Positions 5,181-23,321 of a stretch of 64,000 nucleotides of DNA are shown here, piece after piece; position 1 is the stretch's first letter; each line of letters opens with the position of its first letter. A model generated the notes under the pieces. That model saw nothing but the letters and a program-made list of their open reading frames with translations, searched no databases and was not told where the DNA came from. The translations under genes and the position numbers were made by a program. Source of the stretch: a virus (Duplodnaviria > Caudoviricetes); IMG/VR virus record IMGVR_UViG_3300013121_000007, positions 1 through 64,000 of that record. The stretch is one strand, 5' to 3'.

Positions 5181-5193
5181 TAGACTCCCTCAA

Positions 5194-7530: not shown

Positions 7531-8228
7531 CTCTTCGGCATCCCTACAAAGTCACCAACGTTCTTGCGCAACCTCTTGAGTCTGTTGTAGAAGCCCAGAC
7601 TCTGAAAGAAGTTCCTCACTTCTACAAATGAATCTCCTTGTTCCTCAAGAAGTCTTTGACAACCCTCAACAAAGACCACTGGACGCCAAAGTCGAATTGT
7701 GCCGATACCACCCTTTAGTACCTGTAGCTCAGTCCCCTGAGTATCCACCTTCAGCACACCGACGTTCTTGAATCCGTAACTGTCAATCCTGTTTTGGTTG
7801 ACGTACAGAGAATCCTCTTCCGGTTGTTGTAGTACCTTGGAAAGACCACCAAGGTTGGTTTTACCCCTAAATGAGAGGTCACTGAAGTTTTGCATCCTCA
7901 CTGTACGCTGACTGCCATCCCCAAGCGCTGAAGTATAGACAGTCACATTTGTGAGACCGTGGAGCTTGATATTCCACTGCAATAGTTCCGCGAACTCTGG
8001 GTAAGGCTCAAAAGCGTGAACATGAGAAAATCGCTTCGCCGCGAAAACAGTATGAGTCCCGATATACGCACCGGCATCTATATAGGAACGGCTGCGATCT
8101 GCACAACCAGCGACGGCATCGAGAACCCAAGGTTCCCACCTCTGGCCTGATAGAAGAATCTGCCCAATGTAGTCCTCGTCATAGACGTAGAACTTTCCGT
8201 CCGGAGTATCCGCAAGAACGACCTTCAT
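7527..8228 (-). CDS. FkbM-family methyltransferase
   Basis: IDAGAYIGTHT, VHAFEP, LKVDTQGTELQVLKG, RPVVFVE. Confidence 0.9.
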   Translation of the reverse strand: MKVVLADTPDGKFYVYDEDYIGQILLSGQRWEPWVLDAVAGCADRSRSYIDAGAYIGTHTVFAAKRFSHVHAFEPYPEFAELLQWNIKLHGLTNVTVYTSALGDGSQRTVRMQNFSDLSFRGKTNLGGLSKVLQQPEEDSLYVNQNRIDSYGFKNVGVLKVDTQGTELQVLKGGIGTIRLWRPVVFVEGCQRLLEEQGDSFVEVRNFFQSLGFYNRLKRLRKNVGDFVGMPKR

Positions 8229-8231
8229 TGG

Positions 8232-8759
8232 TCAGGCTCTTACAAATGATCCGAATGCCGGACCATTGGGAGAGAAGATGTCTTGTGGGGCGAAGTACGA
8301 GTCGCCCGACTTTAGAGCTTTCCGAGTACATGCATAAGGTTCTCGACCTGAGTCTGACAACCAGACAATTTCTGGGAAGGTGAAATCCTTATCCATACTC
8401 AGTGAACGAATGTCTACACATTCAATAGAGTAGTATCCTCCCTCTTTGTATGTTGGTGCAGACGTAGCCAGAAACAGTTCTTGGTCTGCGTATAAGACGA
8501 ATGTACCGTCATCCTCCAGCATGACAAATTCGTCGCCCGGTCGTAAGTCTTTCATTCTGGTGCAAGACCACCAACCAATGTCATTATCTGACATGCCTGC
8601 CGGATGATCTCCGTAGTACGGCTTTCTTACGTAGACGGATCGTAACGTGTTATCCGCTGATGGTGCACCTAACTTGTTACGGCGTAAGAACACCCCAACA
8701 ACCGGCAGGCTGCCCAACACCGCATACATCAAGCGAAGAATGAAGTTTCGACGGTACAT
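8232..8759 (-). CDS. Hypothetical protein, N-terminal twin-Arg/membrane anchor
   Basis: MYRRNFI followed by a hydrophobic stretch; internal repeat CTRMKDLRPGDEF / CTRKALKSGDSYF. Confidence 0.5.
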   Translation of the reverse strand: MYRRNFILRLMYAVLGSLPVVGVFLRRNKLGAPSADNTLRSVYVRKPYYGDHPAGMSDNDIGWWSCTRMKDLRPGDEFVMLEDDGTFVLYADQELFLATSAPTYKEGGYYSIECVDIRSLSMDKDFTFPEIVWLSDSGREPYACTRKALKSGDSYFAPQDIFSPNGPAFGSFVRA

Positions 8760-8769
8760 GTTGTGTTCT

Positions 8770-11700
8770 CTACCGTAAAGAGGTCATCACAGCCTGACTA
8801 ATCTCAATCGGACCCGCTGGGTTGTAATTCGTATCGTCGACGAATTCATCAACCGGAGCGTCTTGCAGATGTGGAAGCTCAGTATCTGCTCCGCAACCCT
8901 TCTTCACAAGAGCAATCAACGGGATGTTGCCTGCCCATTTCTGTCGGACAATCCCAGACTCATCGCGAGGCAGTTGCTCTTCTGAGATGAAGCTCAGCAG
9001 TTTCCGATCTGCATCATCACAAGGTTTCGGTTCCTTACAAAACTTCATGGTCACTGCTTTAGGGAGCTTAGCCATGACCTTCATGGCCATTCTGACCCAC
9101 ATGTCTTTCAACGCGCAGTGGACATTGGATGGTTCATGGATGTTACCCTTATCTCCTAGGGAGTCCTCTCTGCAACCTCCACCACAAGCAAACCGATGTC
9201 CACAATTCATGCAGTTGTGGCTGAACACGGCGGAGCTAACAGTGCCATCTGCGTTGATAAACCCGGTTGCGAAGTTATGACACTCGTGGTCGATCTCCAC
9301 GCAGTAGACGTTGCCTGTCTCGGCAAGCTGTTCGACGCTGACGACTGTGTGGTTCGCCATCGCTAAATCTGGACGGTGTTCCCGGAACGCGGAGAACGGA
9401 CAATCTTCCCGCGTCAGGTTGTTGACTGACAGCCAATGACGCCACGTATTCAAGGTGCGTGCGTGTTCAGCCCTTTCCTTGCTCGTGCGCTTGGCGATTG
9501 CTGAACGCCGCCGCTTGTACTCTTCCGTGTTGCGCGATGCCAACTGTCTTGCCCGGAATTCAGGATCGGACCATAGGTGCTTCGCGTTTTCAGACCGAAC
9601 TTGGGATTGTTCTTGTCGGAATACCGGATCGTCCCAGCGTTCAGCGGCTGCGTCGGACGCGACCTTGGCCTGCCGTACCAGCTTGACCCGGAACTCCGCG
9701 TCGCGTGCGGCCCTTACTCGCCGAGCTTCAGCCGATGCAGCCTGCATCCGTCGCATGAACTCCCGATCTTTTCGGAGCCGTCTCATCGTGCGGGAAGCTC
9801 GGACTGACGTCCGTTTCCGGAACTCGACGGCCTCCGGAGCATCCGAGTTCCACAACCACAGCATCGTTTCTGAAAGATGTTCCGAGTTGCCAGCCTTCAA
9901 CCGTTCACGGAATTCAGCGTACTCAGGTTTATTCCACAGCTTATGATTCAAGCTCACGACGTTCTCGCGAGCCTGATTGACCATCATGTCCCGATACCAC
10001 TGATACTCCGGATCGTGCCACATCATCTGGAGTTTGGCCAGATGTGACTCGGACCCGTTGTACTCCAGCAGTTTCTGCCGCCCGAATTCTGAGTGCAGGC
10101 AGATATGATCGACGTACCGCATCCAGACTATGTTGTCAGGTCTGTTATCCAGCTTGTTGAAGTTGAGGTGGTGCCGGACGGAGTGCTGCGGCGTTTTGTC
10201 ACACACGACAAGGCCGAACTCCGTGGTGTAGTCCACCGCGACTTCAGGGGTGAACGCTGCCCGGTGTGTAAACACCCACTGGTCGTTGGAGGGAGACAGG
10301 ACCATTTCGTAGCCGACGCACTTTAGGTCGTCATCAGGCGTTGACAGGCGTCGGTACAACGGCATCAACGAGTCTCCAGGCTGCAACTCGGCGACTGTGG
10401 TGTATTGACCTGACCGTAGCAGGAACTGGTGCTCCGATGAGAACCGGGCGCTTTTGAGGACGCCGTCCTTGTCTCGCAGCGTCACGCGAAACAGAGATGC
10501 GTTGACACCAGCCAACACGACGCGACCCTTGGTTGCAATGATCCGGCCATCGTGACACGAATAGAAGTTGTGCAGCTTGTCTGAACCTTGGTCGTACAGT
10601 TCGCCGATCTTTGGGGATGTGCCGTCCAACAATGGAATTGGAGTTTCGTAAGCGCATGGTCCAGTGCGCGTGTAGATTCGGTTGTCAAGCCAAGGTTGTC
10701 GTAGCTTGGGGTCCATCCCGGTAACGAGTGTTCCTAGGTAGCTGTTACTCTCCCGATGACACCCGAAAATCTCCCCCTTAGCATTCACAGAGGCATAGCC
10801 GGCACCAGCGCCGCATTCAGTCCCAGAGTGGACGCAGTGGAAGATTCTTTCGATGCACTTATGTATGTTGTGGAATCTAGGCTGCTTATTGCTCAAAGCG
10901 CGTTCAATCCACCAGTCGGCCGCATCCATGTACTCGTCATAGAATCGGTCCCACACATTACCTACATGGATTTCAAGTTCGTCCTGGTTCGGTACGAAGC
11001 ACTGAACAGATATACAGCTACTGTCTAGACCCTCTCCTGTGAACATAACAGCGAAGTTGTGGCAGTCATGCTCAACTGAGGGGCAGTATACGTCCTCCAA
11101 TTCGTCTAGGAACTCAACCGACACAACCTTGTGGTTTAGTACGGCTTCCCGTTTCAGCTTCTTCTTGCGGCGCATTGAGTCTTCAAGTTCCGTACCGCGG
11201 AACTCTGCAAGCGGAAGCTCTTCCCGCGTCATGTCATGCTTATTTAGGTACAGTGTCCAACGTTTGTAGGCTGCCTGATATTCTCGCTTGTCATCTACTG
11301 TCGCCAAGCTGCGAGCATCAGGACGATCCTGACAATCTCGAACGTGAGCAGCATGTGCAGATATTCCTTCAGACTTAGTTCCGCAGTGGGGGCAGTCGTA
11401 TTGGTTGTTTTGCATATTCGTGAAGGCAGCACTTTGACGCTGGTAGTGAATTGCCTTCCGATCCGCTGTCTCCGGATTATGGTCACACCAGCGGACGTGG
11501 ATTGCGTGTGCCTGCAGCCCCGTATGTTGTTCACCACAATGCTGGCAAGTCAACGACACGTTTCGCAAGGCATCGAAGTTCGCTTGATGAATTGGTCGCA
11601 TACGTTCTCTATTCTGGTCGTCTGACCAGAACATTTTCATCATCTCAGATACCTGCGCACACTTCCTGGCACGGAACTCAGGGTCTTTCCACGCCTCTTC

Positions 11701-13233
11701 CAGATTGATAGCAACTTTTTCTTTGTCGACTAGTAGACCATGCCACTGCAAGTGGTCGTGACTTGTCATCCACACCAAGTTCTCTGGCCGATTATCTAGT
11801 CGGTTGAAGTTCAGGTGATGAACAATAGTTTGACCCGGCTGTCGAAAGCCAAAGATCAATCTATGATTATCTACGTCGACTGTAGCTCCAATCTCCACCG
11901 AATGTCCCACACTGCGATGCGTATACCGTCGCTTGCCTGTCATTGGGTCCAAGAACATTGAGTATCCTGCCAATGGTCCGGAGCCTGCCAGTTCGGAGTA
12001 GAATGGCAACAATGAGTCACCCGGTTGCAGGGTATCCGCCCGCCGGGTTGTTTGATCCTTCAAAATGAACTGATGGTCCGGCGTGCAGCGCAAGCTCTTA
12101 CGAAACCCGTGTCGATCTTCGACAGTTAGCTTCACCAGTTTTTGGTTACGCTTGATAAGGTGAACCTTCCCCTTAGTAGCAATGACTTTGTCATCAGCGA
12201 AGGAGTAGAAGTCAAACCACTCATCAGAATCAGCCATCTCTTTCATTGTGCGCGTCGTGCCATCAACTAATCCAACACGAGTATCCCCAGCAAAGCAAGT
12301 ATTCTCCGACATTGCTGCGGGTTCGACTGAAACCCAAGACCCCTTCCCGTCATCGCAGAGTTGATTCAGGAACTCCAGTCGTTCGCGAATCGTCTCTCCA
12401 CGGATAGCTGAGAACGTAGACCGCAGCGTGTTTCTTGCCGCCAGTTGTGGTGCGATCTTCTTCATCCGTTCCAGACCAGCCAGAATCTGAGCATGGGACC
12501 CCTTGCCAGACCTCTTCATTGGGCGCAATGCGTCATGCGCCTCACTAGTCCCGTCGATTGAAGTGATGACGGAGTATCCATGATCCTGAAGGAATCGCAG
12601 GTTGTCCTCACTGTAGAGCGTGCCGTTCGTAGTGACATGCAGCGTAGGGGCTTGCTTCCCCAATCCACGGCAAGCTCGACACGTCTCCCCACGAGACTTA
12701 CCACCACCTCCACAGACTTGACAGACTGGTCCGTGTCTACGGGCAAGCGACTCGACGTACTCAGTCACTTCACGAATCAGCTTCATGTTGAGCATCGGCT
12801 CGCCGCCGAAGAATCCAGTAGACAGTCGAACCTTTCGATCTAGCAGCCTGTCAATGGCGCTCTTCGCCGTAGCGAAGGTCATGTAGTTGCCAGTTCCATG
12901 ATCGGAGTAGTAGTTACGAACGAAACAGTAACTACACGCCAGATTGCAATCATGGCAGGCTTCCAGAACCAGAGTCTTCACCGTGGGGTTCGTGGACGCC
13001 TTCTGGAAATTTGGCTTGTACCTCGCCATCACGTAGGGCGACGGCGGGTTGAGTCGCAGAGACTGAAAGTCTTCGATCCCATCAATCTGCAGAAGACACA
13101 TTGAGTTGGGGTCAAATGCGAACTCCAGTCCGTCCTCCACTTTGACGTAGACGAGTTCCGGGTGTTCGTCACTCCGCAGAGGGACGCACTGAATCCGGGG
13201 GTTCAGATGGGAGTTCAGCAGTCGATACGCCAT
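8770..13233 (-). CDS. Radical SAM/SPASM maturase of SCIFF/ranthipeptide (CteB/ScfB-like) type, with two inteins (spliced ~573 aa)
   Basis: VKTLVLEACHDCNLACSYCF (CxxxCxxC), FFGGEPMLN, TTNGTL, SIDG..EAHDALR; SPASM CGAG..YASVN..GEIFGCH and CMNCGHRFACGGGC...HC; N-terminal FAFDPNSMCLLQID resembles the RRE beta-sheet of SCIFF maturases. Confidence 0.9.
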   Translation of the reverse strand: MAYRLLNSHLNPRIQCVPLRSDEHPELVYVKVEDGLEFAFDPNSMCLLQIDGIEDFQSLRLNPPSPYVMARYKPNFQKASTNPTVKTLVLEACHDCNLACSYCFVRNYYSDHGTGNYMTFATAKSAIDRLLDRKVRLSTGFFGGEPMLNMKLIREVTEYVESLARRHGPVCQVCGGGGKSRGETCRACRGLGKQAPTLHVTTNGTLYSEDNLRFLQDHGYSVITSIDGTSEAHDALRPMKRSGKGSHAQILAGLERMKKIAPQLAARNTLRSTFSAIRGETIRERLEFLNQLCDDGKGSWVSVEPAAMSENTCFAGDTRVGLVDGTTRTMKEMADSDEWFDFYSFADDKVIATKGKVHLIKRNQKLVKLTVEDRHGFRKSLRCTPDHQFILKDQTTRRADTLQPGDSLLPFYSELAGSGPLAGYSMFLDPMTGKRRYTHRSVGHSVEIGATVDVDNHRLIFGFRQPGQTIVHHLNFNRLDNRPENLVWMTSHDHLQWHGLLVDKEKVAINLEEAWKDPEFRARKCAQVSEMMKMFWSDDQNRERMRPIHQANFDALRNVSLTCQHCGEQHTGLQAHAIHVRWCDHNPETADRKAIHYQRQSAAFTNMQNNQYDCPHCGTKSEGISAHAAHVRDCQDRPDARSLATVDDKREYQAAYKRWTLYLNKHDMTREELPLAEFRGTELEDSMRRKKKLKREAVLNHKVVSVEFLDELEDVYCPSVEHDCHNFAVMFTGEGLDSSCISVQCFVPNQDELEIHVGNVWDRFYDEYMDAADWWIERALSNKQPRFHNIHKCIERIFHCVHSGTECGAGAGYASVNAKGEIFGCHRESNSYLGTLVTGMDPKLRQPWLDNRIYTRTGPCAYETPIPLLDGTSPKIGELYDQGSDKLHNFYSCHDGRIIATKGRVVLAGVNASLFRVTLRDKDGVLKSARFSSEHQFLLRSGQYTTVAELQPGDSLMPLYRRLSTPDDDLKCVGYEMVLSPSNDQWVFTHRAAFTPEVAVDYTTEFGLVVCDKTPQHSVRHHLNFNKLDNRPDNIVWMRYVDHICLHSEFGRQKLLEYNGSESHLAKLQMMWHDPEYQWYRDMMVNQARENVVSLNHKLWNKPEYAEFRERLKAGNSEHLSETMLWLWNSDAPEAVEFRKRTSVRASRTMRRLRKDREFMRRMQAASAEARRVRAARDAEFRVKLVRQAKVASDAAAERWDDPVFRQEQSQVRSENAKHLWSDPEFRARQLASRNTEEYKRRRSAIAKRTSKERAEHARTLNTWRHWLSVNNLTREDCPFSAFREHRPDLAMANHTVVSVEQLAETGNVYCVEIDHECHNFATGFINADGTVSSAVFSHNCMNCGHRFACGGGCREDSLGDKGNIHEPSNVHCALKDMWVRMAMKVMAKLPKAVTMKFCKEPKPCDDADRKLLSFISEEQLPRDESGIVRQKWAGNIPLIALVKKGCGADTELPHLQDAPVDEFVDDTNYNPAGPIEISQAVMTSLR
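9214..10659 (-). mobile_element. Intein 2 with HNH homing endonuclease (482 aa), probable Pro1 start
   Basis: PCAYETPIPLLDG block A; SEHQFL block B; VRHHLNFNKLDNRPDNI HNH; NHTVVSVE..VYCVEI..HNF; ends FSHN/C. Confidence 0.85.
11002..12297 (-). mobile_element. Intein 1 with HNH homing endonuclease (432 aa), Gln-terminated
   Basis: CFAGDTRVGLVDG block A; CTPDHQF block B; VHHLNFNRLDNRPENL HNH; two CxxC..H..H..C zinc fingers; NHKVVSVE..VYCPSV..HNF; ends SVQ/C. Confidence 0.85.
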
Positions 13234-13570
13234 GTCTCAGGTCCTCTGTCTTCTCCGAGTTTTGCGCAAAGGCAAACCAGACTGCCTCAAAGAATTCTGT
13301 GATTTCTGCTGCAATCCACGCAACGCCGCAGAGATAAAGTCCATCCATCAATGGATTGGACAACCAGCCAAAACCCGCAAAGTGGAATGCCAACCCTACC
13401 CAGAACCCGGTGCAGTAGAGACACCACTCGTCCCAGGACTCTTCAGATCGCCAGATTCTTTTGAGGAGCCAGTGGATTGGTGCACGGAAGATTCTACCAG
13501 CAATTGCACTTCGTGCAATGACTGCTGTGGCTCCAATCCCCGCGAAAGTTGCACAAGTGGCTTGATCCAT
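13169..13570 (-). CDS. DUF1360-like membrane protein
   Basis: IFRAP...WCLYCTGFWVG motif with 2-3 hydrophobic helices. Confidence 0.65.
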   Translation of the reverse strand: MDQATCATFAGIGATAVIARSAIAGRIFRAPIHWLLKRIWRSEESWDEWCLYCTGFWVGLAFHFAGFGWLSNPLMDGLYLCGVAWIAAEITEFFEAVWFAFAQNSEKTEDLRHGVSTAELPSEPPDSVRPSAE

Positions 13571-13881
13571 TCAGCACCTTGATTGACAGCCTCACTCTTC
13601 TTGCAGTTGATACAGTCAAACAGCTTTGCTGGCTCATGCCCGTACAGAAGACATCGGAAGACCTGCCCCCTCTCGACCCGGCAGCAGACGCTTGTGGTGA
13701 TTTTACCCGTGTTCTTTCTGTGCTTGCAATTCTTAGCGCACTGCAGCAGATGCTTGCGGATCAGAGGGAAGTTTTTCAACGCAAAGTAGTCTGTTGGCTT
13801 GGCAGCTTTCAACTGCTTAGCTTTGTAGGCTCTTCCACGAACGGTAGCCCTAGCGCGGCCCTTGTGAGATTGTCTTTTCAC
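13396..13881 (-). CDS. Small basic Cys-rich hypothetical protein
   Basis: Abuts upstream gene; CxxxC, CC, CxxC; 3' end overlaps DUF1360-like gene. Confidence 0.45.
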   Translation of the reverse strand: MKRQSHKGRARATVRGRAYKAKQLKAAKPTDYFALKNFPLIRKHLLQCAKNCKHRKNTGKITTSVCCRVERGQVFRCLLYGHEPAKLFDCINCKKSEAVNQGAEWIKPLVQLSRGLEPQQSLHEVQLLVESSVHQSTGSSKESGDLKSPGTSGVSTAPGSG

Positions 13882-13883
13882 AC

Positions 13884-14768
13884 TCAGACGCCTGCCATGA
13901 GTCTTGAGACTGAGTAGGTTCCCAAAGTTCGCATGATGGATTCAGGTAGGCAATGCGATTGGAAGAACAGCTTGGCTGCGACGCCAATCCTTCTGCAATC
14001 CTCTTTGTTACTGCGACACCATTCTATTCGCTCCACCAAGTCAGAGTAGTCATCGCGGCAAACGATGTAATGCTCATTGGGTACAGGGGGTCCCTCGTCA
14101 GAAACCCAGGTGTGAATATAGGGGCTGATTGTGCAGACCCCAAAGGCAAACAGTTGAAGCTGCGAGCTTCCAAGCATGTTGTTCCACAGACCGGGGACGT
14201 GTACGGAGACGAGACTCTTACTCGCCTTTGACCAGTATTCGACTTGTCCAGCAAACTTGTCGTCGACAAGGTCCCCATACTGACAGTGAAGAAGCTCAGA
14301 CACTAGATGTCTTCTACGTCGCAGGTCGTCAGTCCACTGTTCAGTCGCTGTGCTGATGCGCAAGTTGTGGACGCACAGAATTGTCTCACTTGCGGCGGAG
14401 TACCGAATTGTCTTTTCCAGTTCCCTGTATCGCCGCCAGTCAGAGAACGTGACAGGTGGGAATGGCTGTACATTCCCATAAGGTACGTGCGACGAAGTCG
14501 TCTGCGTCTTGTACCAGACATCATAGTTTCCAGCCGCAGGCGGCAGTTGCGGCAGGTCGTTGAAATCGAACCCGCAAAGTAGGCTGCCTATCCGAAAAGA
14601 GAAAGATAGCGGAGTTGGGAACTTCAACCCGTCATCCTCAACAACCCTCATACCAAAACGACAGGATACGTCCTTGAGTATGTTCTCAAAGTATAGCGGA
14701 CAGGTTGGTAGCTTCGACCGAAAGCTGAGCTTTGCCGGTATGCAGATTTCTCTTGGTATGCCTTCCAC
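13884..14768 (-). CDS. Glycosyltransferase (GT90/Glyco_trans_1_2-like)
   Basis: PNEHYIVCRDDYSDLVERIEWC...CRRIG..AKLFF C-terminal signature. Confidence 0.7.
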   Translation of the reverse strand: MEGIPREICIPAKLSFRSKLPTCPLYFENILKDVSCRFGMRVVEDDGLKFPTPLSFSFRIGSLLCGFDFNDLPQLPPAAGNYDVWYKTQTTSSHVPYGNVQPFPPVTFSDWRRYRELEKTIRYSAASETILCVHNLRISTATEQWTDDLRRRRHLVSELLHCQYGDLVDDKFAGQVEYWSKASKSLVSVHVPGLWNNMLGSSQLQLFAFGVCTISPYIHTWVSDEGPPVPNEHYIVCRDDYSDLVERIEWCRSNKEDCRRIGVAAKLFFQSHCLPESIMRTLGTYSVSRLMAGV

Positions 14769-14789
14769 ACGAAGTTCCTAACTACCCGC

Positions 14790-17700
14790 TCAAGATTCGA
14801 CGCCGCTGCATCCCTCAGTGTACGAATACTGGCATTCGTACACGCAAGAGTCCTGGCATGTCAACTGACAGTCAGGTTCAATACCCGCCTGACAACCCCC
14901 CGCCGTGCACGAATCCTGGCAGATTGTTTCGCATCCAGGTTCAACACCAGCTTGGCAGTTTGCCTGACAAGCGTATTGGCACTCAGTCTCACAAGCATCC
15001 GAGCAACTGCCTTCAGTGTAGTTTTCACAACAGGCTTCACAGCAGTCGGAGCAAGATTCTGAAGAGCCTTCACAAGAGGCTTCGCAGGAAGTCTCACAAC
15101 CACCCGATGCTTGGCATGATGACTCGCAAGCTGTCTGGCAACCTGTTGTACAGCCTGACGTGCAAGACTCTTCGCATCCCGACGATTGACACTGACACTC
15201 ACAGCACCCCTGACAACCGGAAGACTCGCAAGCAGCCTGACAAGACGCGCCTTCGCATGTTACCTCACAAGAGCCTTGGCAGCCCCCCTGGCAACCACCC
15301 TCACAACCGACTTCGCATCCAACCCCCTGACAGTCAGCTTGGCAATTGAACTCGCAGGTAGATTGACAAGCCCCTTGGCAGGCATCCTGACAGTTAGTTT
15401 CGCACGACGTCTCACAGCCAGAAACGCAAGAGGCTTGACAGTCAAGCTCGCAGGTCGTTTGGCATCCAACACCTTCGCAAGAGTCCTGACAACATGTTTG
15501 GCAGGCGTCTTGACAACTAGTCTGGCAGCCGATCTCCGTAGGCGACTGACAGTCGAACTCGCACGCAATCTGACAGTCGAACTCGCAAAAGTCTTGACAA
15601 CCAGAGGTGCAGGAAAGCTGACAACCAACAATCTCGCAGGACCCTTGACACGTATTCTCGCAGGAAACTTGACAAACACCCTCGCACGCCCCCTGACAGT
15701 AAGACTGACAGGCATCCGATTGGCAGGAGATGACGCAACCAGCTTGGCAGACTACCTCACAATCAGTTTGACAATTGGCCTCGCACCTGAGTTGGCAGGA
15801 GTTCTCACAAGCGCCGGCCCCCTGACAGTCTGTTTCACAACCGACTTCACAGAAAGTCTGACAAGACACCATACAACCCTGAGTACAACTCGGAACGATA
15901 ACAAGGGTATCGTATCCGGGCGTACTTGCTTTGTCCTGGAATCTGCCAACAACTCTAGTGTACAGGTCATCTACTGGCTGCGAAGCGACTTCCGGCAAGT
16001 CAGCAATTGTAACGCAGTAGACAGGCAACACATGAATAGGTCGTTGATCCCTGAAGTAAGCATTCAGGATTCTCATAGCCTCAGAGTATCGCAAAGTGTT
16101 TCCCAGACACTTATTGATCTCGAAGCAAGCCTCCAGTTCATATTGGAGGTCCGGGTCTCCGGTAGGGTCGTGTGGTGGTAGGGAGAACAAGCCTTGAGTC
16201 GTTACCTGACACTGACCCTTGCAAACTGCTAATTCTAGTTCGGTTTGACAAACGCTCTCACACGTAGAGATGCACGTTGTTTCATCAGTCAACTGACACG
16301 CTACTTCACACCCTGCTTGGCAAAGGCACTCGCAAGCCTGTAGACAAGACTCTGAACTGTTCACTACAGGTTTGATTACGTCTTGCGTAATAACCAGTGA
16401 CGCCGCGTACTTTCCGTAGTGGTACTCAAAGTCAAGGCTGTGCGCCCTAACTGATCCAAAAAATACAAGAGGGTCTCCGCTGGAGATTGCCTTTGAGTGC
16501 AGAAGTCTTTGCAGCCTAAACGTTACGTCAAACGTTCTAGGCTTCACATCGAATCTCATCGCATTGGACTCCTCTGACGTTGAGGAGTAAACGTAGTAGT
16601 TCCTTACGTTGACAAAGTAGTCGACGTCTCCCACCTCGTATGGTGGAAGCATACCTGTCATAAAAATAGGAACATACGTATCGTTGTAGCTTGGTTCCTC
16701 CACTGGCGAAAGGTAAAGAGTTGCATTACGAATACTGTCAGGGTCCCCCAAAGCTACATTCTTGAAGACCCAGAAAGGTTGGTTTATTATTGTGAGAGCT
16801 AAGTAAGAACCTCCAGATTCAGATGTACTTGTATGCGACCTTGCGATAATTGCAGTGTTGGACAAAGAGTATCTATTGGGACTTACAGTACCCACTGTAG
16901 AACTAGGGATTTCCGTTGTAAACGTTCCCGTATCCTGTGCTTCTGAGATTCGGTAGGTTGTTGTCTCCTCTGCAACCTCGTACTCTTCAACACTATACAC
17001 ACGTCTGACAACAAGCTCAGCAGCCGTGATATGTGCTTCTTGATCTGACTGAAACTGAACCCAGAACTGTGACCAGTTGATACTACTGATTAGCTCTCCC
17101 CAGAAGTCCTCTGCATTCCACCACACTTCATAAACCTGCGCACCAGTGTCTGTGATTGTTGCTGTGCGATCATTCAACTCACCTTGCGCCAAGGCATGGT
17201 TGACTCGAATTGTAGCTACGGTTTCTGAGTAGGCGCGAAATCGCACCCCAATCATGTCGTATGGCCCAACAAACGAAGAGGGGGGCGTGAGAACAGGCTG
17301 TTGTGGGTACAAGCTGCCGTCAATGGTAACGGCTGACGTGTCATCAGCAGCGTAGGTTGTATCAAGTCCTCCGATTGGAATGATCGCAAAATCTTCGCAG
17401 ACAACAACGATCCGGTCATCAGGCTCTGTTACGAGGACAGCATTCCTGTTGAACGTATAGACAGCGCCGGCGTTCTCTACACCATTCCCACCTAACTCGT
17501 CATAATCGTCGTTAGGTGTTCCGACGAACAGAGTATCACTGGTAGACGCTATCCCATTACCGAACGCGGTTGTCTTTGGGTCATACTGTCTACCACGAAA
17601 GCCGAATGGAGTTAGTGTCTGCACCTCTTCGTGGTTGTAAGGTGTAGCCCTAAAGATGGTGATTGCGCCATCTGGCTTACTTGAGAAGTTCTCAAAGTTC

Positions 17701-19343
17701 TCGTCCCAACGATTACCCCATGCAGTAAGAGTTATGAAATCGCCATGCATCTCCAATGTAGAGGCATCAAAGATTGACAGACTGCTGCTATCAGTTCCTG
17801 TACTCAGTTCTGCTGGGTAGGTTCGCTTCAGCATGTGGGAGTAGACGAAATTCCCACTACCAGTTGAGTCAATAAAGACGAAGCAGCCTCCAAAGAATGT
17901 AACCTGACCTTCATTATTGGTCGGTACTGTGACGTATGGCCACTTTGCAGAAACAACCAGCGTACTGCCGTTTAGTTGCAATCCGTAACCAAACTCAGGT
18001 CCTGTATCTCCCTGACTTACGGCATAAGCAACGGCGGCTGCTTGATGCGGCCACGTCAATGCAGACAAATGATTGATCTGTAGGTCTGCACCAGAGGCTG
18101 AGACTTCATAGATGTCCACCTGTCCGACGTTAGGGACACCATCAATACTCAGCAAATGACGGCTGACGGCAACATAGTTCCCGGAAGCTGTTATTCGGTG
18201 AATACCTGCAAGCGGGATATCTGCGCCGATCTGCTCAAAAGCATCGCCTGTAGGAAGTCCAGTTTCTTGGTAGAACCGGATAGCCTCATTTCCACTGTCT
18301 CCGAAAAACGTGACGGCGTAGCATTTTCCAGTAGCTTCATGCTTACCAATTCCTACAGCGCGTCTGTTGATTGTTGCTGGTGAGACGTCAAGACTCCCGC
18401 GTCTTGTGTACGTACCGTCTGTCTCACGTTGAAAGATCAACGTAGGACCGAGCAACTCTGTGACAGCTACGTACCCATTAGACGTCAGTACAGAAGACCC
18501 AACTTGAAACCACGTTTGTCCGCTTGCCAGAGTCTCGTCCGCATCTTTTCTAAGTGCTGTGACGAACTCCCAGACTCCATCTACCTTCCGATAAACGGAG
18601 ACGCGGCCCTCAAAAGTATCAGAACCATCTTCCGTCCACCGTCGCTCACCAATAAGAAGATCATCTTCGATTGCAGCAACATCGTACCCAAACTGAAAGT
18701 CAACACCACGTTCCGTACTGATAATCTTCTGACCCGCAGTGAACTCACGGTAGTCGTAGTCGATTGACGTTACGTCATAGTCAATGACTGTTGGTTCTGG
18801 TTCCGGCTCTGGTTCAACTGTTGGTTGTGGAGTGTAAGGGGGAACACAAACAATGGTGTCTGATGACCAGTCGTAGGGAAACAAGCCGACCGGGGACACG
18901 GCAATTCTTGACGACTTATACGGAAATGTACTGTTTCTGCGAGTGTTGTAGTCTGCCTCTTCATTTGGCTCTGTCTTGAAAAGCTCTGTGAAGCTGTACG
19001 AGGAGGCAGCCCGGTAGATGTTAGCCCTATCCCAGCCAAACACTGTCCCACTGATCTTATGCCAAGCCACGGACCCCGAAAGCATGAATCGTTCCAAGGA
19101 TTCATACCACCCCTCTGCAACTTGCTGTCCCAGTAGGTAGAACAGCATAGACCTGTATTCACTGCCCGCTTTCAGATAGTCATACAGGTCTTTCATCGCA
19201 ACAGCGAGCGCGATGAACTCGTCAGCCTCTTCCTGCAAAGTAGCATCCGTAATCTTCTTTAGGATTGGATCAATACCGAATCCACCGGACGCTTCTGCGT
19301 CTCGTAGTCTGATAATCAGAGGAAGAAGGTCATACAGCTTCAT
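14790..19343 (-). CDS. Large baseplate wedge/fibre protein: P2-gpI-like N-terminus, FG-GAP-like beta-propeller, C-terminal C-(Q/E)-x-x array
   Basis: ATG at 19343 overlaps upstream TGA. LYDLLPLIIRLRD...WHKISGT; FGYDVA/FGYGLQ/FGNGIA..GTPNDD..NAGAVYTF propeller repeats; RPIHVL; about 100 Cys in the last third (hand count). Confidence 0.75.
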   Translation of the reverse strand: MKLYDLLPLIIRLRDAEASGGFGIDPILKKITDATLQEEADEFIALAVAMKDLYDYLKAGSEYRSMLFYLLGQQVAEGWYESLERFMLSGSVAWHKISGTVFGWDRANIYRAASSYSFTELFKTEPNEEADYNTRRNSTFPYKSSRIAVSPVGLFPYDWSSDTIVCVPPYTPQPTVEPEPEPEPTVIDYDVTSIDYDYREFTAGQKIISTERGVDFQFGYDVAAIEDDLLIGERRWTEDGSDTFEGRVSVYRKVDGVWEFVTALRKDADETLASGQTWFQVGSSVLTSNGYVAVTELLGPTLIFQRETDGTYTRRGSLDVSPATINRRAVGIGKHEATGKCYAVTFFGDSGNEAIRFYQETGLPTGDAFEQIGADIPLAGIHRITASGNYVAVSRHLLSIDGVPNVGQVDIYEVSASGADLQINHLSALTWPHQAAAVAYAVSQGDTGPEFGYGLQLNGSTLVVSAKWPYVTVPTNNEGQVTFFGGCFVFIDSTGSGNFVYSHMLKRTYPAELSTGTDSSSLSIFDASTLEMHGDFITLTAWGNRWDENFENFSSKPDGAITIFRATPYNHEEVQTLTPFGFRGRQYDPKTTAFGNGIASTSDTLFVGTPNDDYDELGGNGVENAGAVYTFNRNAVLVTEPDDRIVVVCEDFAIIPIGGLDTTYAADDTSAVTIDGSLYPQQPVLTPPSSFVGPYDMIGVRFRAYSETVATIRVNHALAQGELNDRTATITDTGAQVYEVWWNAEDFWGELISSINWSQFWVQFQSDQEAHITAAELVVRRVYSVEEYEVAEETTTYRISEAQDTGTFTTEIPSSTVGTVSPNRYSLSNTAIIARSHTSTSESGGSYLALTIINQPFWVFKNVALGDPDSIRNATLYLSPVEEPSYNDTYVPIFMTGMLPPYEVGDVDYFVNVRNYYVYSSTSEESNAMRFDVKPRTFDVTFRLQRLLHSKAISSGDPLVFFGSVRAHSLDFEYHYGKYAASLVITQDVIKPVVNSSESCLQACECLCQAGCEVACQLTDETTCISTCESVCQTELELAVCKGQCQVTTQGLFSLPPHDPTGDPDLQYELEACFEINKCLGNTLRYSEAMRILNAYFRDQRPIHVLPVYCVTIADLPEVASQPVDDLYTRVVGRFQDKASTPGYDTLVIVPSCTQGCMVSCQTFCEVGCETDCQGAGACENSCQLRCEANCQTDCEVVCQAGCVISCQSDACQSYCQGACEGVCQVSCENTCQGSCEIVGCQLSCTSGCQDFCEFDCQIACEFDCQSPTEIGCQTSCQDACQTCCQDSCEGVGCQTTCELDCQASCVSGCETSCETNCQDACQGACQSTCEFNCQADCQGVGCEVGCEGGCQGGCQGSCEVTCEGASCQAACESSGCQGCCECQCQSSGCEESCTSGCTTGCQTACESSCQASGGCETSCEASCEGSSESCSDCCEACCENYTEGSCSDACETECQYACQANCQAGVEPGCETICQDSCTAGGCQAGIEPDCQLTCQDSCVYECQYSYTEGCSGVES
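14793..15887 (-). repeat. Degenerate 12-nt-period coding repeat (Cys-x-x-x)n
   Basis: About 87 Cys, mostly every 4th residue, usually followed by Q or E. Confidence 0.95.
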
Positions 19344-20146
19344 TGTTTTTCTGCCGTCAACTGACAACCTTGAGACTCACACCCTACGATGCACCCACAT
19401 TGAATAAGAATTTCACAACCACCGTCCATCTGACAATGAGTCGTGCATCCAACAGTACAAGAGTCTTCGCAAACCCACTCACTGTTCAACTCTCTTGAAG
19501 AGGCTGGACCTGACTCTAACAAAGCCTCAACCAATCTCGGAAATTGACTGCGCCCTTGAACGTTGTGCTGGCAAGTATACTCGCAGCCGAACTGACAGGC
19601 ACCATCGGATGGCCGCTGTCCTGGCTGCTGCTCAAGCTCGCACTCAAGCTCGCAGTCACATTCACAGATTGTCTGGCAATTCGTCTGACAAACTGTTGCT
19701 CCCTGACAGGCTTCTTGGCAGGCTTGCTCACAACTTGTCTCACATAATCCGGAGCTTTCAGGCTGGTAAAAATCCTGAGTCTCGTCTGATGACTGGCAAG
19801 CATACTGACAGACAAATGTGCAGTCGGATTGACACCCATCTAGCTCGCAGTACATCCTGCAGGCATATCCAGTGTTCTTCTCCGGCTGCAGAATTTGTGC
19901 GACGACTCCTGATTCTGTAATGACCTCTGTAACAACTTGCTGCTGCTTCTCACATCCTAGCTGACATGAAGAAGATTCACACCCTACATTCTCGCAGGAG
20001 GACATGCACCCATTTTGACAACCTTGCTCACAACTTTCAGACTCACACGATAGTTGGCAGCAGTTCTCACAGGCGCTTATGCAGGCTCCAAGCTCGGCTG
20101 CCGCTTGGCAATTCAGTTTGCAGTAAGTCGTCATCTCGCCCGGCAT
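19340..20146 (-). CDS. Stand-alone Cys-x-x-x repeat protein (putative radical SAM target)
   Basis: About 42 Cys in 268 aa, in five CxxxC blocks separated by polar linkers. Confidence 0.8.
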   Translation of the reverse strand: MPGEMTTYCKLNCQAAAELGACISACENCCQLSCESESCEQGCQNGCMSSCENVGCESSSCQLGCEKQQQVVTEVITESGVVAQILQPEKNTGYACRMYCELDGCQSDCTFVCQYACQSSDETQDFYQPESSGLCETSCEQACQEACQGATVCQTNCQTICECDCELECELEQQPGQRPSDGACQFGCEYTCQHNVQGRSQFPRLVEALLESGPASSRELNSEWVCEDSCTVGCTTHCQMDGGCEILIQCGCIVGCESQGCQLTAEKQ

Positions 20147-20148
20147 GA

Positions 20149-21309
20149 CTAAACGACAACCCCTTCAGAAGCTGGAGGCCCTCCATCGCATGGGTCTTGT
20201 GCTGATGACTGGCACGAAAACTGACAAGCGTCAGTGCAAATAACTTCAACGTCGAACTGACAATTGGTTTCACAGTAAGACTGGCAACTCTCTCCGGAGC
20301 TTTGGCAGCCGGATTGGCACTGCTGCTGGCAGGAATACTCGCAGTCTGTCTGACACTCAGATTGGCAGCTTCCTTGACAGAAAGATTGGCAAGCATCCTG
20401 ACAACCTTGCTCGCATGAGGCTTCACAAAAGAATTGACAGGTTGCCTGACAGTTATTTTCACACTGTGCTTGGCAAGTAGATTCACAAGTTGTTTCGCAC
20501 GTAAACTCGCAGAGGACTTCACAACGTTCTTGGCAAGAAAGTTGACAACCTGACTGACACTGCTTCTGTATTACAAGCTCATCCTCCTGCGACGTAACTC
20601 TATCTTCAAACAGCACATACACTGTCGCTGCGATATCATCAGATGAACTTGATACTTGATCCTCAAACTCTGTGCGGTCTACGGGAGGGGGAATCAGTAC
20701 ATTGATAGGGAATACGTTGTTTAGACGTCTGCGAAAATCTTTCGCCTCTCCATAACCAATCTGGTCTACAGCAAATACGCCGATATCAAGGCCATCCGAC
20801 TGTAGAGGTTCTCCTAGTCCGGGTTCATCCCCTGCAATGAACACGACTCTGGCGGCGCGGTAGGCTGTTGAGTAGGGTGCTTCATCTGGTGAAACAACGT
20901 ACTCATCAACAGCGTTCAATTCCCATTTGTACAACTCATGGATGTACGTACCAGCAGCAATTGCCCTAGCTGCTCTTTCCTTCAGGATAGACAGAACAGT
21001 TCCTTTGATCCTATGTCTAGCTGAAAGAGTGGCTACATAGTTTCTTCTATCTGCTGTTATGCTTGAGAATGGAAACTCGGTAGACCCAAGATAATTAGAC
21101 AGAAGAGACAGTATTAGATCAGTTGTACTGCTCGGTGAGATGAGGTCTTGAATTCCCTCAATTAGCGCAACAATGATATCCGTCTCGTCTTGCACAGCAC
21201 CGACGATACGCTTCAAAATCGGATCATCACTCCCTTGACCAGAGGCCTCTGCATCGCGAAGGCGAATGATAAGTGGGAGTAGATCATACAGGCCGATCTT
21301 CACGTTCAA
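20149..21309 (-). CDS. Baseplate wedge protein (P2 gpI-like) with C-terminal Cys-x-x-x array
   Basis: Directly follows baseplate J. LYDLLPLIIRLRD...HRIKGT, FPINVL; 22 consecutive period-4 Cys, 29 in total. Confidence 0.8.
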   Translation of the reverse strand: MNVKIGLYDLLPLIIRLRDAEASGQGSDDPILKRIVGAVQDETDIIVALIEGIQDLISPSSTTDLILSLLSNYLGSTEFPFSSITADRRNYVATLSARHRIKGTVLSILKERAARAIAAGTYIHELYKWELNAVDEYVVSPDEAPYSTAYRAARVVFIAGDEPGLGEPLQSDGLDIGVFAVDQIGYGEAKDFRRRLNNVFPINVLIPPPVDRTEFEDQVSSSSDDIAATVYVLFEDRVTSQEDELVIQKQCQSGCQLSCQERCEVLCEFTCETTCESTCQAQCENNCQATCQFFCEASCEQGCQDACQSFCQGSCQSECQTDCEYSCQQQCQSGCQSSGESCQSYCETNCQFDVEVICTDACQFSCQSSAQDPCDGGPPASEGVVV

Positions 21310-23321
21310 TCCTCAGATTGAATCTCTACATCTACGAAACCATACGTTGCAAACTGGTTGGCGTCCACAGGAACATCGCCTGCGTTGACTGACAGAAGTT
21401 GGACATACATAGCGGCAATGCTTCTGTCCTCCGATGGTGCAGAGGCCAGAGTAAAGTCGAATGTCCCTGTGTTGTAGTCAATAATGTTCACGCCGGTCCC
21501 ATCAATATCATCCCCGATGAGTGCACCTTCACCGTCATCGGAGATTGTCTGATAGCCATCCGTGAATGCGACTGTTCCCGGAACGATTGGAAAGTTTGTA
21601 AGCTGCCCGCGAAACCTAGCGACGACGCCGTTACCATTGGCTAGTTCTGACTCAGACCGTTGATACTCTAGCGGGTAGCGGTAGGAGATTCTTACAGGCT
21701 CAGAGGCTGCGGGAACAGGTGTGGCGAATCCGAAGCTGAGAGTTCCCAGATCATAGTCAACAGCATTGTCGAACAGCGGGTCGACGTCACCGATGAGATT
21801 TCCATTGCCATCATCCGTTACAACGTGGTCTCCAGATACTATTTGAATCGTACCTGCAAGAGGCTGACTGAACGTGGTATGTGTATACATCTGCGTTACG
21901 CCATCACTGGTTCCAACCACTTCACTAGTTTCAGCCGATGCTGTTACACGGCGAATCAGCGCGTAGCTGACCCCGTCAGTGTTCATGATGAGGCTGTAAA
22001 GCCTAGACAACCGCAGGTTTGTTCCAGGCTGATTTGTTGCTGACGTGAAGTACGATTTCAGAGCTTGAGCTACAGAAATCGAGAGTTCAGAATCAGCCAC
22101 AGTACCGTCACCAGTTACAGCAACATCAACGTCAACAATGATGTTTTCTCCGTCTTGCACTTCAACGTCAACAGTGATAATGCGAACAGCGCCGTCACCG
22201 TTGTTGTCGAAGTAGTATTGAATCGCGGCCTTCAGACCAGATGATGGTGCAACAACGTTTCCGTAGCTATCACGCGACCATACGAAGACCTCAACAGTGT
22301 TGAGTTCTGGAATCCTCTGTTTCAGTCTAGCCTTGGCGTATGCAGGAGACCCGTAAACAGGATCATTGAATTGACTCGCCAAGGTGTCAAAATCGCGTTC
22401 AGTGACAGCACGTCCGTTTGTAGCTACAACCCGCGGTGCCCAGAATTTAGCTGAATCAATCGTCTCACGTTCCTCGCCGCCGGACCCACGTTCATTGTTT
22501 GTAAAGTGTACCTGAACGAACTCTTCAGGAGCGCTTCCTTCTCGCAGCCCCTGAATAGTAATATCGCTGATTTCGTTGATAGCGATATTCCCTCGTAGTC
22601 CTCCACCGATTCTGTAGGAGACTGTTATATTTGCGCCTGCCGTTGGTATTGCTCCGGAGGTTCCATCGCCGAAACTGATGTAGGCGTAGTCTTCCGTGTC
22701 AGTCCTAACAGCGTAGTTGTTACTCGACGTCCCAGAGAAAATGAGTGACTCGACTTCTTCCCATTCAAACCCATCGACATTGACAGTGATGGAGTCCTTG
22801 ATGATTGGATTCAAGGCGAGCTTGTACTCTTGCAGAGAAGCTCCCGTTGAAGTGAAGGTATCTTGTTGAGACTGACCCTCCACCATTGTGATTTCAGCTT
22901 CTGTTGATCCAATCGTAATCTTCTGGTCATTCAAGACCTCAAAAGTGACCCCGTTGGCTGTCTCAATCGTTGTTCCTGCCTGGATGACAATGTCTACAAG
23001 CTCAACAGCGGAAAGTGTCGCTGTGACCGCTACCGAAGCACTGGTAGCAGGCCTCAGCTTGTAGCCCACAAGCTGAGTCAAAAGAATGATGGCCTCTCTG
23101 TCTGTAGCTGTCCCCAGAAATTGGTTACGCACCATCTCATCCAGCATGAAGCTGAGATTGTCGAAGACATAGGAGACAAGCTCCAACCATGCCATGCCGA
23201 TGCTTGACTCTGTGAAGTCTCTCCAAGTATCTGGAAACGTAGCGCGGACTCTGTTCACCAGAGCCGCACGAATCGACTCAAAGTCCCGATCTGCATAGTT
23301 GATGTTCGGCGCTGCCATCAT
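21306..23321 (-). CDS. Baseplate wedge subunit (J / T4 gp6-like)
   Basis: INYADRDFESIR..L, WRDFTESSIG, FGDGTSGAIP, YRIGGG.RGNI, GGEERETIDSAK..AP, RAVTERDF. Confidence 0.92.
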   Translation of the reverse strand: MMAAPNINYADRDFESIRAALVNRVRATFPDTWRDFTESSIGMAWLELVSYVFDNLSFMLDEMVRNQFLGTATDREAIILLTQLVGYKLRPATSASVAVTATLSAVELVDIVIQAGTTIETANGVTFEVLNDQKITIGSTEAEITMVEGQSQQDTFTSTGASLQEYKLALNPIIKDSITVNVDGFEWEEVESLIFSGTSSNNYAVRTDTEDYAYISFGDGTSGAIPTAGANITVSYRIGGGLRGNIAINEISDITIQGLREGSAPEEFVQVHFTNNERGSGGEERETIDSAKFWAPRVVATNGRAVTERDFDTLASQFNDPVYGSPAYAKARLKQRIPELNTVEVFVWSRDSYGNVVAPSSGLKAAIQYYFDNNGDGAVRIITVDVEVQDGENIIVDVDVAVTGDGTVADSELSISVAQALKSYFTSATNQPGTNLRLSRLYSLIMNTDGVSYALIRRVTASAETSEVVGTSDGVTQMYTHTTFSQPLAGTIQIVSGDHVVTDDGNGNLIGDVDPLFDNAVDYDLGTLSFGFATPVPAASEPVRISYRYPLEYQRSESELANGNGVVARFRGQLTNFPIVPGTVAFTDGYQTISDDGEGALIGDDIDGTGVNIIDYNTGTFDFTLASAPSEDRSIAAMYVQLLSVNAGDVPVDANQFATYGFVDVEIQSED

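Follow-up and report, generated by a model that had tools for sequence, protein, structure and literature searches.

Several radical S-adenosylmethionine (SAM) enzymes with a SPASM domain are known to form thioether links in cysteine-containing substrates. The SCIFF system (CteA/CteB/ScfB; TIGR03974; PDB 5WGG/5WHY) acts on a peptide of approximately 45 residues with 6 Cys, and PapB (NF047865) converts the tandem cysteine repeats of the peptide PapA, six C-x3-D motifs, into the serial small thioether rings of freyrasin; PapB is reported to accept both Asp and Glu (PMC9413430). In the maturation of quinohemoprotein amine dehydrogenase, QhpD (TIGR03906) modifies a protein subunit instead of a released peptide and places three links in the small subunit QhpC, joining Cys to the C-gamma of Glu and the C-beta of Asp (PMC13692751). 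The enzyme CrpC of the archaeon Methanococcus voltae was shown experimentally to install ranthionine links on the 28.8-kDa cysteine-repeat protein CrpA (PMC13692751, 2026), which indicates that protein-sized repeat substrates are feasible. The CXXX-repeat system (TIGR04115 maturase; TIGR04117 and TIGR04114 targets; PF27846) has been defined bioinformatically and consists of short, free-standing bacterial peptides with a Cys at every fourth residue beside a radical SAM gene. The locus described here lies in the first 64 kb (64,000 nucleotides, in the following termed the window) of the IMG/VR virus record IMGVR_UViG_3300013121_000007 (192.6 kb; CheckV completeness 87%), in which three consecutive phage tail genes encode proteins with long C-(Q/E)-x-x arrays and a radical SAM/SPASM enzyme is encoded downstream on the same strand (Table 1). 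We consider it likely that this locus is a phage tail-fibre maturation system in which the enzyme staples the Cys arrays of baseplate and fibre proteins by thioethers, and the fibres are probably locked by these enzyme-made, non-reducible cross-links.

Each of the described systems shares some features with the phage locus. The SCIFF precursors encoded beside the cellular maturases that are nearest to the enzyme clade of the window carry the core CGECQTSCQSACKTSC, which contains the C-Q-x-x unit of the phage arrays; the core cited in the original prediction, CQTSCQSACKTSC, is indeed found beside these nearest cellular homologues. The phage arrays therefore read like a SCIFF core enlarged ten- to twenty-fold and joined to tail proteins. 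However, the phage substrates would be tail proteins of 268-1517 aa with 29-105 Cys, and the maturase is phage-encoded, with features beyond CteB in the form of two inteins, a Zn-ribbon-like insert and a 90-aa C-terminal extension. PapA resembles the arrays in being a tandem cysteine repeat, but up to approximately 90 contiguous C-(Q/E)-x-x units with Cys at position +4 are found in the phage. QhpD, one of the two or three best family matches of the phage enzyme, shares the choice of a protein as substrate, yet QhpC has no repeat array and the phage locus lacks the quinone cofactor context. The pairing of CrpC and CrpA is similar by description, as a SPASM radical SAM enzyme is encoded beside a protein-sized, Cys-rich repeat substrate whose paralogues share an N-terminal region, just as the phage proteins share a gpI-like N-terminus; in contrast, CrpC is archaeal and cellular, and the CrpA repeat has 17 residues with C-x-x-Q/D instead of four residues. 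The CXXX-repeat system shares the Cys at every fourth residue beside a radical SAM gene. Its target family PF27846 is a precomputed match for the window cluster P0126, which includes the gpI-like protein, and for nine orthologues, and was unreported in our own Pfam scan; the target model TIGR04117 reached 18.4 bits, compared with a cut-off of 50.

Table 1. Features of the cysteine-array locus and its surroundings (window positions).
Feature	Position	Strand	Remarks
Tape measure	26615-29629	-	upstream of baseplate J-like gene
gp25/W-like gene	23318-23719	-	upstream of baseplate J-like gene
Baseplate J-like wedge protein, 671 aa	21306-23321	-	phrog_219 baseplate wedge subunit, E 1.6e-42
P2 gpI-like baseplate protein, 386 aa (or 384 aa, should translation begin two codons later at a GTG)	20149-21309	-	29 Cys
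Strand preceding the gpI-like array	20560-20620	-	candidate recognition element
C-terminal C-(Q/E)-x-x array of gpI-like protein	20188-20559	-	aa 251-374
Cys-array protein, 268 aa	19340-20146	-	almost wholly arrays; 42 Cys (15.7%), 23 spacings of 4
Giant tail-fibre-like protein, 1517 aa	14790-19343	-	105 Cys, 66 spacings of 4
First array of 1517-aa protein	16209-16346	-	aa 1000-1045
Strand preceding the second array	15888-15950	-	candidate recognition element
Second array of 1517-aa protein	14808-15887	-	aa 1153-1512
Glycosyltransferase-like protein, 294 aa	13884-14768	-	between fibre and enzyme; weak GT90, E 0.0012, below cut-off
Small basic Cys-rich zinc-ribbon-like protein, ~150 aa	13396-13881	-	50-54% identity in L004, L085, L086
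Small hydrophobic protein	13169-13570	-	aligns only with L004 and L087 proteins; not clade-wide
Radical SAM/SPASM precursor, 1487 aa	8770-13233	-	exteins aa 1-312, 745-859 and 1341-1487, giving a 574-aa enzyme
Zinc-finger-like insert in radical SAM core	12660-12740	-	aa 165-191
Intein 1, HNH endonuclease	11002-12297	-	aa 313-744; exact gap versus P0007, P0008, P0006; PF14890 and HNH_3
Intein 2	9214-10656	-	aa 860-1340; exact gap versus intein-free orthologues; second PF14890 stretch
175-aa protein	within 4329-8759	-	no assignment; downstream of radical SAM gene, same operon
FkbM methyltransferase	7527-8228	-	downstream of radical SAM gene, same operon
GT1/GT4-like protein	6568-7530	-	downstream of radical SAM gene, same operon
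GT1/GT4-like protein	5810-6571	-	downstream of radical SAM gene, same operon
214-aa protein	within 4329-8759	-	no assignment; downstream of radical SAM gene, same operon
Fringe-like protein (weak)	4329-5180	-	downstream of radical SAM gene, same operon

PHROG matches and gene order were used to read the region as a myovirus-type tail operon on the minus strand, in which the baseplate J-like protein anchors the Cys-array module. The placement of the three Cys-rich genes directly after baseplate J agrees with the original prediction, whose coordinates were all confirmed and whose hand counts of 29 and 42 Cys proved exact, while the third, estimated at about 100, was corrected to 105; the three proteins together hold 176 Cys. 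Spacings of exactly four residues between Cys were observed 25, 23 and 66 times in the gpI-like, the 268-aa and the 1517-aa protein, compared with means of 1.6, 3.9 and 5.8 and maxima of 6, 13 and 14 in 1000 shuffles per protein. The pooled proteins contain 114 C-x3-C units, far above the shuffled sequences, in which the second position is Gln in 47% and Glu in 34% (81% Q/E) and the third and fourth positions are mostly small or polar residues. The period-4 arrays proposed for this locus are therefore real, and the array string GCQTSCQDACQTCC quoted as an example was located in the 1517-aa protein. This protein begins with a gpI-like N-terminus, followed by an FG-GAP region (FG-GAP_2, 30 bits) and the Cys arrays. 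Over the N-terminal 150 aa it shares 37% identity with the gpI-like protein (E 6e-18), and as this N-terminus is common to the first and the third protein, the arrays are C-terminal extensions of baseplate-attached proteins. The gpI assignment itself is suggested by the position of the gene directly behind baseplate J, by a match to TIGR02242 with an E value of only 0.033, and by weak precomputed matches of two orthologues (P0134 and P0135) to PF09684 (Tail_P2_I).

The arrays are strictly conserved. In an alignment of the gpI-like array with 10 orthologues (53-64% identity), every one of the 29 Cys is invariant and keeps its register with zero indels, and the Q/E position is mostly kept or interchanged between the two residues. 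Orthologues of the 268-aa protein with 258-287 aa occupy the same position in five related loci (L003, L004, L085, L086 and L087), and orthologues of the 1517-aa fibre hold 103-108 Cys. Structure prediction of the gpI-like array protein with AlphaFold2 from the 10-sequence alignment was unusable, with a mean predicted local distance difference test (pLDDT) score of 37.5 and the array drawn as a helix at pLDDT 50-64. Sequences upstream of the arrays were also compared. A strand with the pattern F-x-[DE]-x6-8-D-x-L-x-[IV]-x3-C directly precedes the first Cys of most arrays in the enzyme clade of the window, and a second pre-array type, [ID][DE][RE]I-x-[LIF]-x-x-R...G, was found in L013, L017 and L018. 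Judged by their sequence and position, both are candidate leader-like recognition elements.

The enzyme is encoded by the only radical SAM gene in the 192.6-kb genome. Its ORF (open reading frame) starts 1.56 kb downstream of the 1517-aa gene, on the same strand and with three small genes in between, much as predicted (about 1.5 kb), and terminator-like sites are not enriched (10 observed, shuffle mean 12.8), in line with the earlier statement that no obvious terminator separates the arrays from the enzyme. The precursor matches PF04055 with 49.1 bits (cut-off 29.5) and contains the radical SAM cluster motif CNLACSYC (CxxxCxxC; C93, C97 and C100). Alignment to the intein-free orthologues P0007 and P0008 identified a complete SPASM motif of seven Cys (C807, C825, C1341, C1344, C1350, C1354 and C1373). 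The SPASM model TIGR04085 scored 24.8 bits on the C-terminal extein alone, below its cut-off of 27, because an intein splits the domain. The sequence motifs quoted in the original prediction (VKTLVLEACHDCNLACSYCF, CGAGAGY and CMNCGHRFACGGGC) are present, and CMNCGHRFACGGGC forms only across the second intein junction.

NCBIfam hidden Markov models were used to rank the window protein and five intein-free orthologues. The top families are all thioether formers (nif11-type, QhpD, PapB and SCIFF maturase), with 127-190 bits, or 150-190 bits after in-silico removal of the inteins. For the SCIFF maturase model TIGR03974 (cut-off 425) the window protein reached 127.5 bits and the intein-free orthologues 153-173 bits, with identities overall of 25-30%, whereas a true member scores 539 bits. 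Scores for PapB (NF047865, cut-off 340) were 127.5 bits for the window protein and 150-165 bits for the orthologues, and scores for QhpD (TIGR03906, cut-off 453) were 137-188 bits, in the setting of a tail operon instead of a QhpC/QhpA context. The CXXX-repeat maturase model TIGR04115 (cut-off 350) gave 58-78 bits. Membership of the anaerobic sulfatase maturase (anSME) clade had been named as an outcome that would speak against the prediction, but TIGR03942 (cut-off 349) reached only 66-94 bits and ranked 7th-12th, and the nearest solved structure is CteB with an E value of 2e-32, compared with 5e-6 for anSME. In a maximum-likelihood tree, which is unrooted and has several other long branches, the window clade comprises 18 sequences (support of 99 in the Shimodaira-Hasegawa-like approximate likelihood ratio test, SH-aLRT), of which 17 stem from metagenomic contigs that are viral or unclassified and one stems from a prophage. 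This clade groups with genuine SCIFF maturases and a Roseivivax relative that is unclassified (SH-aLRT 94). Six residues in proximity to the catalytic site of CteB (F112, F152, T186, S210, H363 and Q364) have been used to sort thioether synthases (PMC10288494). A HMMER alignment of P0008 with 5WGG indicated that five of the six are identical (F, F, T, S and H) and that the sixth is Arg in place of Gln; the window protein holds the same residues as P0008. The assignment to a SCIFF/CteB-type maturase thus stands with regard to the nearest structure and the leading thioether families and falls short with regard to the TIGR03974 cut-off, and by sequence the enzyme would work like a SCIFF/CteB maturase rather than be one. 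The N-terminal 85 aa of the enzyme are conserved within the window clade. An insert in the radical SAM core, GPVCQVCGGGGKSRGETCRACRGLGK, contains two CxxCxGxG units that resemble a DnaJ-type zinc finger and is present in the nearest relatives P0006-P0008 and absent from the consensus of the wider clade. Its sequence suggests that it may be an added substrate-holding element.

Intein-free orthologues with 66-80% identity (P0007, 80%; P0008, 68%) guided the in-silico removal of the inteins. PF14890 was matched with 70.2 bits (cut-off 35.8) in two stretches and HNH_3 with 39.5 bits (cut-off 24.8) in intein 1. Intein 1 starts with Cys, ends with a non-canonical Val-Gln and is followed by Cys745. 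Intein 2 starts with Cys, ends with His-Asn and is followed by Cys1341, the first Cys of the CxxCx5Cx3C SPASM motif, and this C-x2-C-x5-C-x3-C block arises only upon removal of intein 2. By these sequence features both inteins are real and of class 1 with HNH endonuclease, apart from the C-terminal residue pair of intein 1. The N-extein of intein 2 contains one extra Pro compared with the intein-free orthologues. The radical SAM genes of L004 (intein at 10001-12286), L085 and L086 also carry inteins, partly at other sites, and their reading frames are open. With an intein of P0006 at a third site, just before SPASM Cys1, inteins in this enzyme family occupy at least three sites, and the residue that follows is in each case a conserved Cys (the clade-specific Cys745, SPASM Cys1 in P0006 and SPASM Cys3).

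Co-occurrence of arrays and enzyme was analysed across related and unrelated phage contigs. Four related loci (L003, L004, L085 and L086; 51-76% protein identity) keep the full gene order of baseplate J, gpI-array protein, Cys-rich protein of approximately 270 aa, giant array fibre, 294-aa glycosyltransferase-like protein, small ORFs and radical SAM enzyme. L002 (80% identity of the enzyme) keeps this order from the giant fibre to the enzyme on a contig that begins inside the fibre gene, and the contig of L087 ends before the enzyme. In a forward test, a profile of the enzyme yielded 80 viral loci. In nearly all loci with at least 29% identity, array ORFs of 300-2700 aa are found within 10 kb of the enzyme and on its strand, the exceptions being contigs that end within approximately 1-3 kb of the enzyme, and about 25 loci of unrelated radical SAM families contain no arrays at all. 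A reverse test employed a DNA pattern that describes five C-(Q/E)-x-x units in a row and is blind to the enzyme. The complete list comprises 53 stretches on 51 contigs, with true arrays on 44 of them, and 36 of these 44 contain a PF04055/A1-type radical SAM gene. Two further contigs, G015 (86% complete) and G008 (with terminal repeats), had been candidates for near-complete genomes with arrays and without the enzyme and were rejected as such, as each encodes beside the array a divergent radical SAM-like ORF that PF04055 misses or scores weakly (G015: QhpD E 4.5e-14 and a SPASM domain; G008: CxxxCxxC and QhpD E 2.7e-7). Counting these and, if accepted, the weak match beside the array of G004, the enzyme is present in 38-39 of the 44 contigs, and among all 44 no near-complete genome with an array was found to lack an adjacent radical SAM-like gene. 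In all 14 further records that were fetched, the radical SAM ORF shares the strand of the array ORF and directly adjoins or overlaps it, and six records with false arrays (CQGR-type simple repeats or no real array) have no radical SAM gene. A related-locus search with the array segment alone as the query confirmed nothing.

As a control, the nearest cellular homologues, which have at most 30% identity, were inspected, and an array was detected in one of 80 loci (1.33 Mb). This sole locus (L275, 30% identity) is a prophage structural module in a planctomycete metagenome-assembled genome; an array protein of 1390 aa and a radical SAM enzyme are encoded there together with a head-tail connector and a tail completion protein. 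The pairing of array and enzyme is near-universal in array-bearing phages, both in related contigs, for which the original prediction had proposed this check, and in unrelated ones; among the 44 array contigs, arrays without the enzyme, which would have spoken against the prediction, occur only on fragments. The radical SAM enzymes adjacent to phage arrays belong to at least six lineages, for most of which PapB is the best NCBIfam match, and the pairing is thus not one inherited gene block. Its presence in both directions of the search and across these lineages is strong comparative evidence for the arrays being the enzyme substrate. The checks suggested with the original prediction, in so far as they are computational, all turned out in its favour.

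Some loci differ in detail. Two or three different radical SAM genes stand in tandem beside one array protein in L261 (G016), L264 (G020) and L265 (G021/G022), which suggests that the enzymes divide the work between them or that the array receives several kinds of modification. In L275, a protein with a C39-like peptidase domain is encoded 2.6 kb downstream of the array/enzyme pair (14099-15799 of that locus), and none was seen in the window clade; C39 peptidases are typical leader proteases of RiPPs (peptides that ribosomes make and that are modified after translation). The apparent arrays without an enzyme that were returned by a looser first DNA pattern were rejected, as their translations revealed perfect 12-bp tandem repeats (CQGR/CERR) or off-frame matches. 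Such repeats, which read CQGR, CERR or CQPR and have no radical SAM gene nearby, were seen in L089, L101, L112, L149 and L162, are probably off-frame or non-coding, and are a trap for any automated census of Cys arrays.

On the basis of these observations, the following course of events can be proposed. Late in infection, the 1487-aa precursor would shed its two HNH inteins and yield a 574-aa radical SAM/SPASM enzyme with three clusters, which would act on the C-(Q/E)-x-x arrays of the gpI-like protein, the 268-aa protein and the 1517-aa fibre. A substrate Cys would bind the open iron of auxiliary cluster I, as in CteB, PapB and QhpD, the 5'-deoxyadenosyl radical would take a hydrogen from a side-chain carbon, and the Cys sulfur would join that carbon. 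The likeliest acceptor would be the C-gamma of the conserved Gln or Glu, which is next to the carbonyl, as in the Cys-Glu links made by QhpD and PapB. Repetition along the array would lead to a ladder of small, non-reducible thioether rings. One conceivable register is (Q/E)-x-x-C, others being C-Q/E or inter-chain, and the sequence is compatible with each of them. The fibre segment produced in this way would be rigid, insensitive to redox changes, resistant to proteases and presumably part of the virion.

A number of points weigh against this interpretation. The family scores of 127-190 bits, set against curated cut-offs of 340-519, do not allow a confident transfer of the chemistry, and the motif geometry is unlike that of PapA (C-x3-D) and CrpA (C-x-x-Q/D), with Cys at +4, so that the acceptor and the ring size are guesses. 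For the RRE-like (RiPP recognition element) N-terminal strands named in the original prediction, no match of the precursor to the PqqD/RRE families of Pfam was found at an E value of 0.01 or better. In the window, the enzyme is not adjacent to the arrays, and five array contigs, all of them fragments with a completeness of at most 42%, have no radical SAM gene. The Val-Gln end of intein 1 makes splicing uncertain, and an unspliced product would be inactive. A set of 176 Cys, multiplied by the copies per virion and the virions per burst, would demand much of a class of enzymes that usually work slowly, and the phage members of this group are known from sequence alone. Finally, some sactisynthases, namely GggB and QmpB, look like ranthisynthases both in sequence and in active-site profile (PMC10288494), which would permit an S-C-alpha link or other Cys chemistry. 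This last point, together with the low family scores, the Arg at the sixth active-site position and an array geometry that fits no characterised substrate, belongs to an alternative in which the enzyme modifies the arrays by other radical chemistry (sactionine links, inter-chain links, formylglycine or another change of Cys or a side chain). We regard it as unlikely, as the anSME models score far below the thioether families, five of the six active-site-lining residues are those of CteB, and the sole conserved position besides Cys is a Gln/Glu, a known type of ranthionine acceptor as in the Cys-Glu link of QhpD (PMC13692751).

The arrays could also be structural modules held by disulfides or metals, comparable to the His-x-His iron sites of the T4 fibre or to metallothionein-like clusters, with the enzyme acting on another target (for instance a sugar, a cofactor or a small protein encoded nearby) and sharing only a late operon with them. 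A C-x3-C spacing aligns Cys on one face of a helix, and a helix is what AlphaFold2 weakly draws; glycosyl- and methyltransferases surround the enzyme, and three genes separate it from the arrays in the window. This explanation is nevertheless distinctly improbable, because the pairing recurs in at least six enzyme lineages and in unrelated tail modules, usually with abutting ORFs while the intervening and surrounding genes are not conserved, because no near-complete genome among the 44 array contigs lacks an adjacent radical SAM-like gene, and because the nearest cellular relatives adjoin and act on peptides with the same C-Q-x-x core. It is very improbable that the system is decaying in this phage, with the enzyme disabled by selfish inteins and the arrays working unmodified. 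Two large inserts do break the catalytic core, and the canonical His and Asn are missing from the last two positions of intein 1, but inteins with a terminal Gln can splice. In addition, the frame is open over all of its 1487 codons, the exteins share 80% identity with an intein-free orthologue and keep all cluster ligands, and the genes of L004, L085 and L086 have stayed open with inteins whose sites partly differ. The resemblance to SCIFF cores and the C39-like peptidase near the planctomycete prophage pair would suit arrays that are precursors of released peptides, such as a RiPP toxin or signal, instead of virion parts. Since the arrays form part of the same chain as a gpI-like baseplate domain or of fibre proteins of 1000-2700 aa, all encoded in tail operons, and no protease or exporter is conserved in the window clade, this reading is extremely improbable.

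Thioether stapling of Cys arrays on tail proteins would add a virion context, a larger scale and an enzyme clade with inteins to a type of chemistry and a repeat-target logic that are already known. A literature search yielded no description of phage radical SAM enzymes acting on Cys-array tail proteins, and the CrpC/CrpA paper makes no mention of phages (PMC13692751). The original prediction knew of no virion maturation of this kind, which the search bore out for phages, whereas protein-sized Cys-repeat substrates as such have been published with CrpA, the nearest precedent. We lean, if only slightly, towards radical SAM thioether stapling being a widespread and undescribed step of virion assembly that is used by many unrelated tailed phages with at least six enzyme lineages. 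If so, baseplate and fibre ends would be ladders in which each chain carries tens to approximately one hundred non-reducible rings. They would be a covalent protein material of a new kind and would exceed all other known substrates of RiPP-type enzymes in size. RiPP-type radical chemistry would serve the structural proteins of the phage itself and not antibiotics, and would join proteolysis, HK97-type isopeptide chainmail and disulfides as a route of virion maturation. The substrates of SPASM thioether enzymes would grow from peptides of at most 5 kDa and one archaeal protein of 29 kDa to fibres of more than 160 kDa with approximately 100 sites, which would make these enzymes, as naturally processive ones, of interest for the stapling of peptides and proteins. 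In annotation, radical SAM genes in tail modules would be read as fibre maturases; a cyanophage paper lists a phage radical SAM maturase as an 'antibiotic synthesis gene' (PMC12801897). The pairing of array and enzyme is testable now with intein-free orthologues and array fragments.

A near-identity DNA search of a cultured-phage collection gave no match, and a protein search of cultured phages gave only matches of at most 31% identity (human-gut phage contigs and Erwinia jumbo phages) and no close cultured relative. The genes between the fibre and the enzyme are kept to different degrees. The 294-aa glycosyltransferase-like protein has the same position in six relatives (49-56% identity), and its language-model neighbours are viral 'glycosyltransferase' clusters (score 0.98); the AlphaFold2 model from a 7-sequence alignment was too poor for a fold search (mean pLDDT 51.5). 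The small zinc-ribbon-like protein has no Pfam or PHROG match and shows the Cys pattern C-x13-CC...C...C-x2-C, which is kept between the glycosyltransferase-like gene and the enzyme in four of six relatives. By its sequence, it could be a zinc-ribbon accessory factor. The small hydrophobic protein is probably outside the system. Downstream of the enzyme, the same kinds of genes are found in L003 and L004, and those for sugar and methyl transfer, which recur in L275, may further modify the fibres, for example by glycosylation. In place of the small hydrophobic protein of the window, the slot just upstream of the enzyme is occupied by a protein with a DGHHR motif (ParB/sulfiredoxin-like) in L085 (18984-19433) and L086 (18579-19019).

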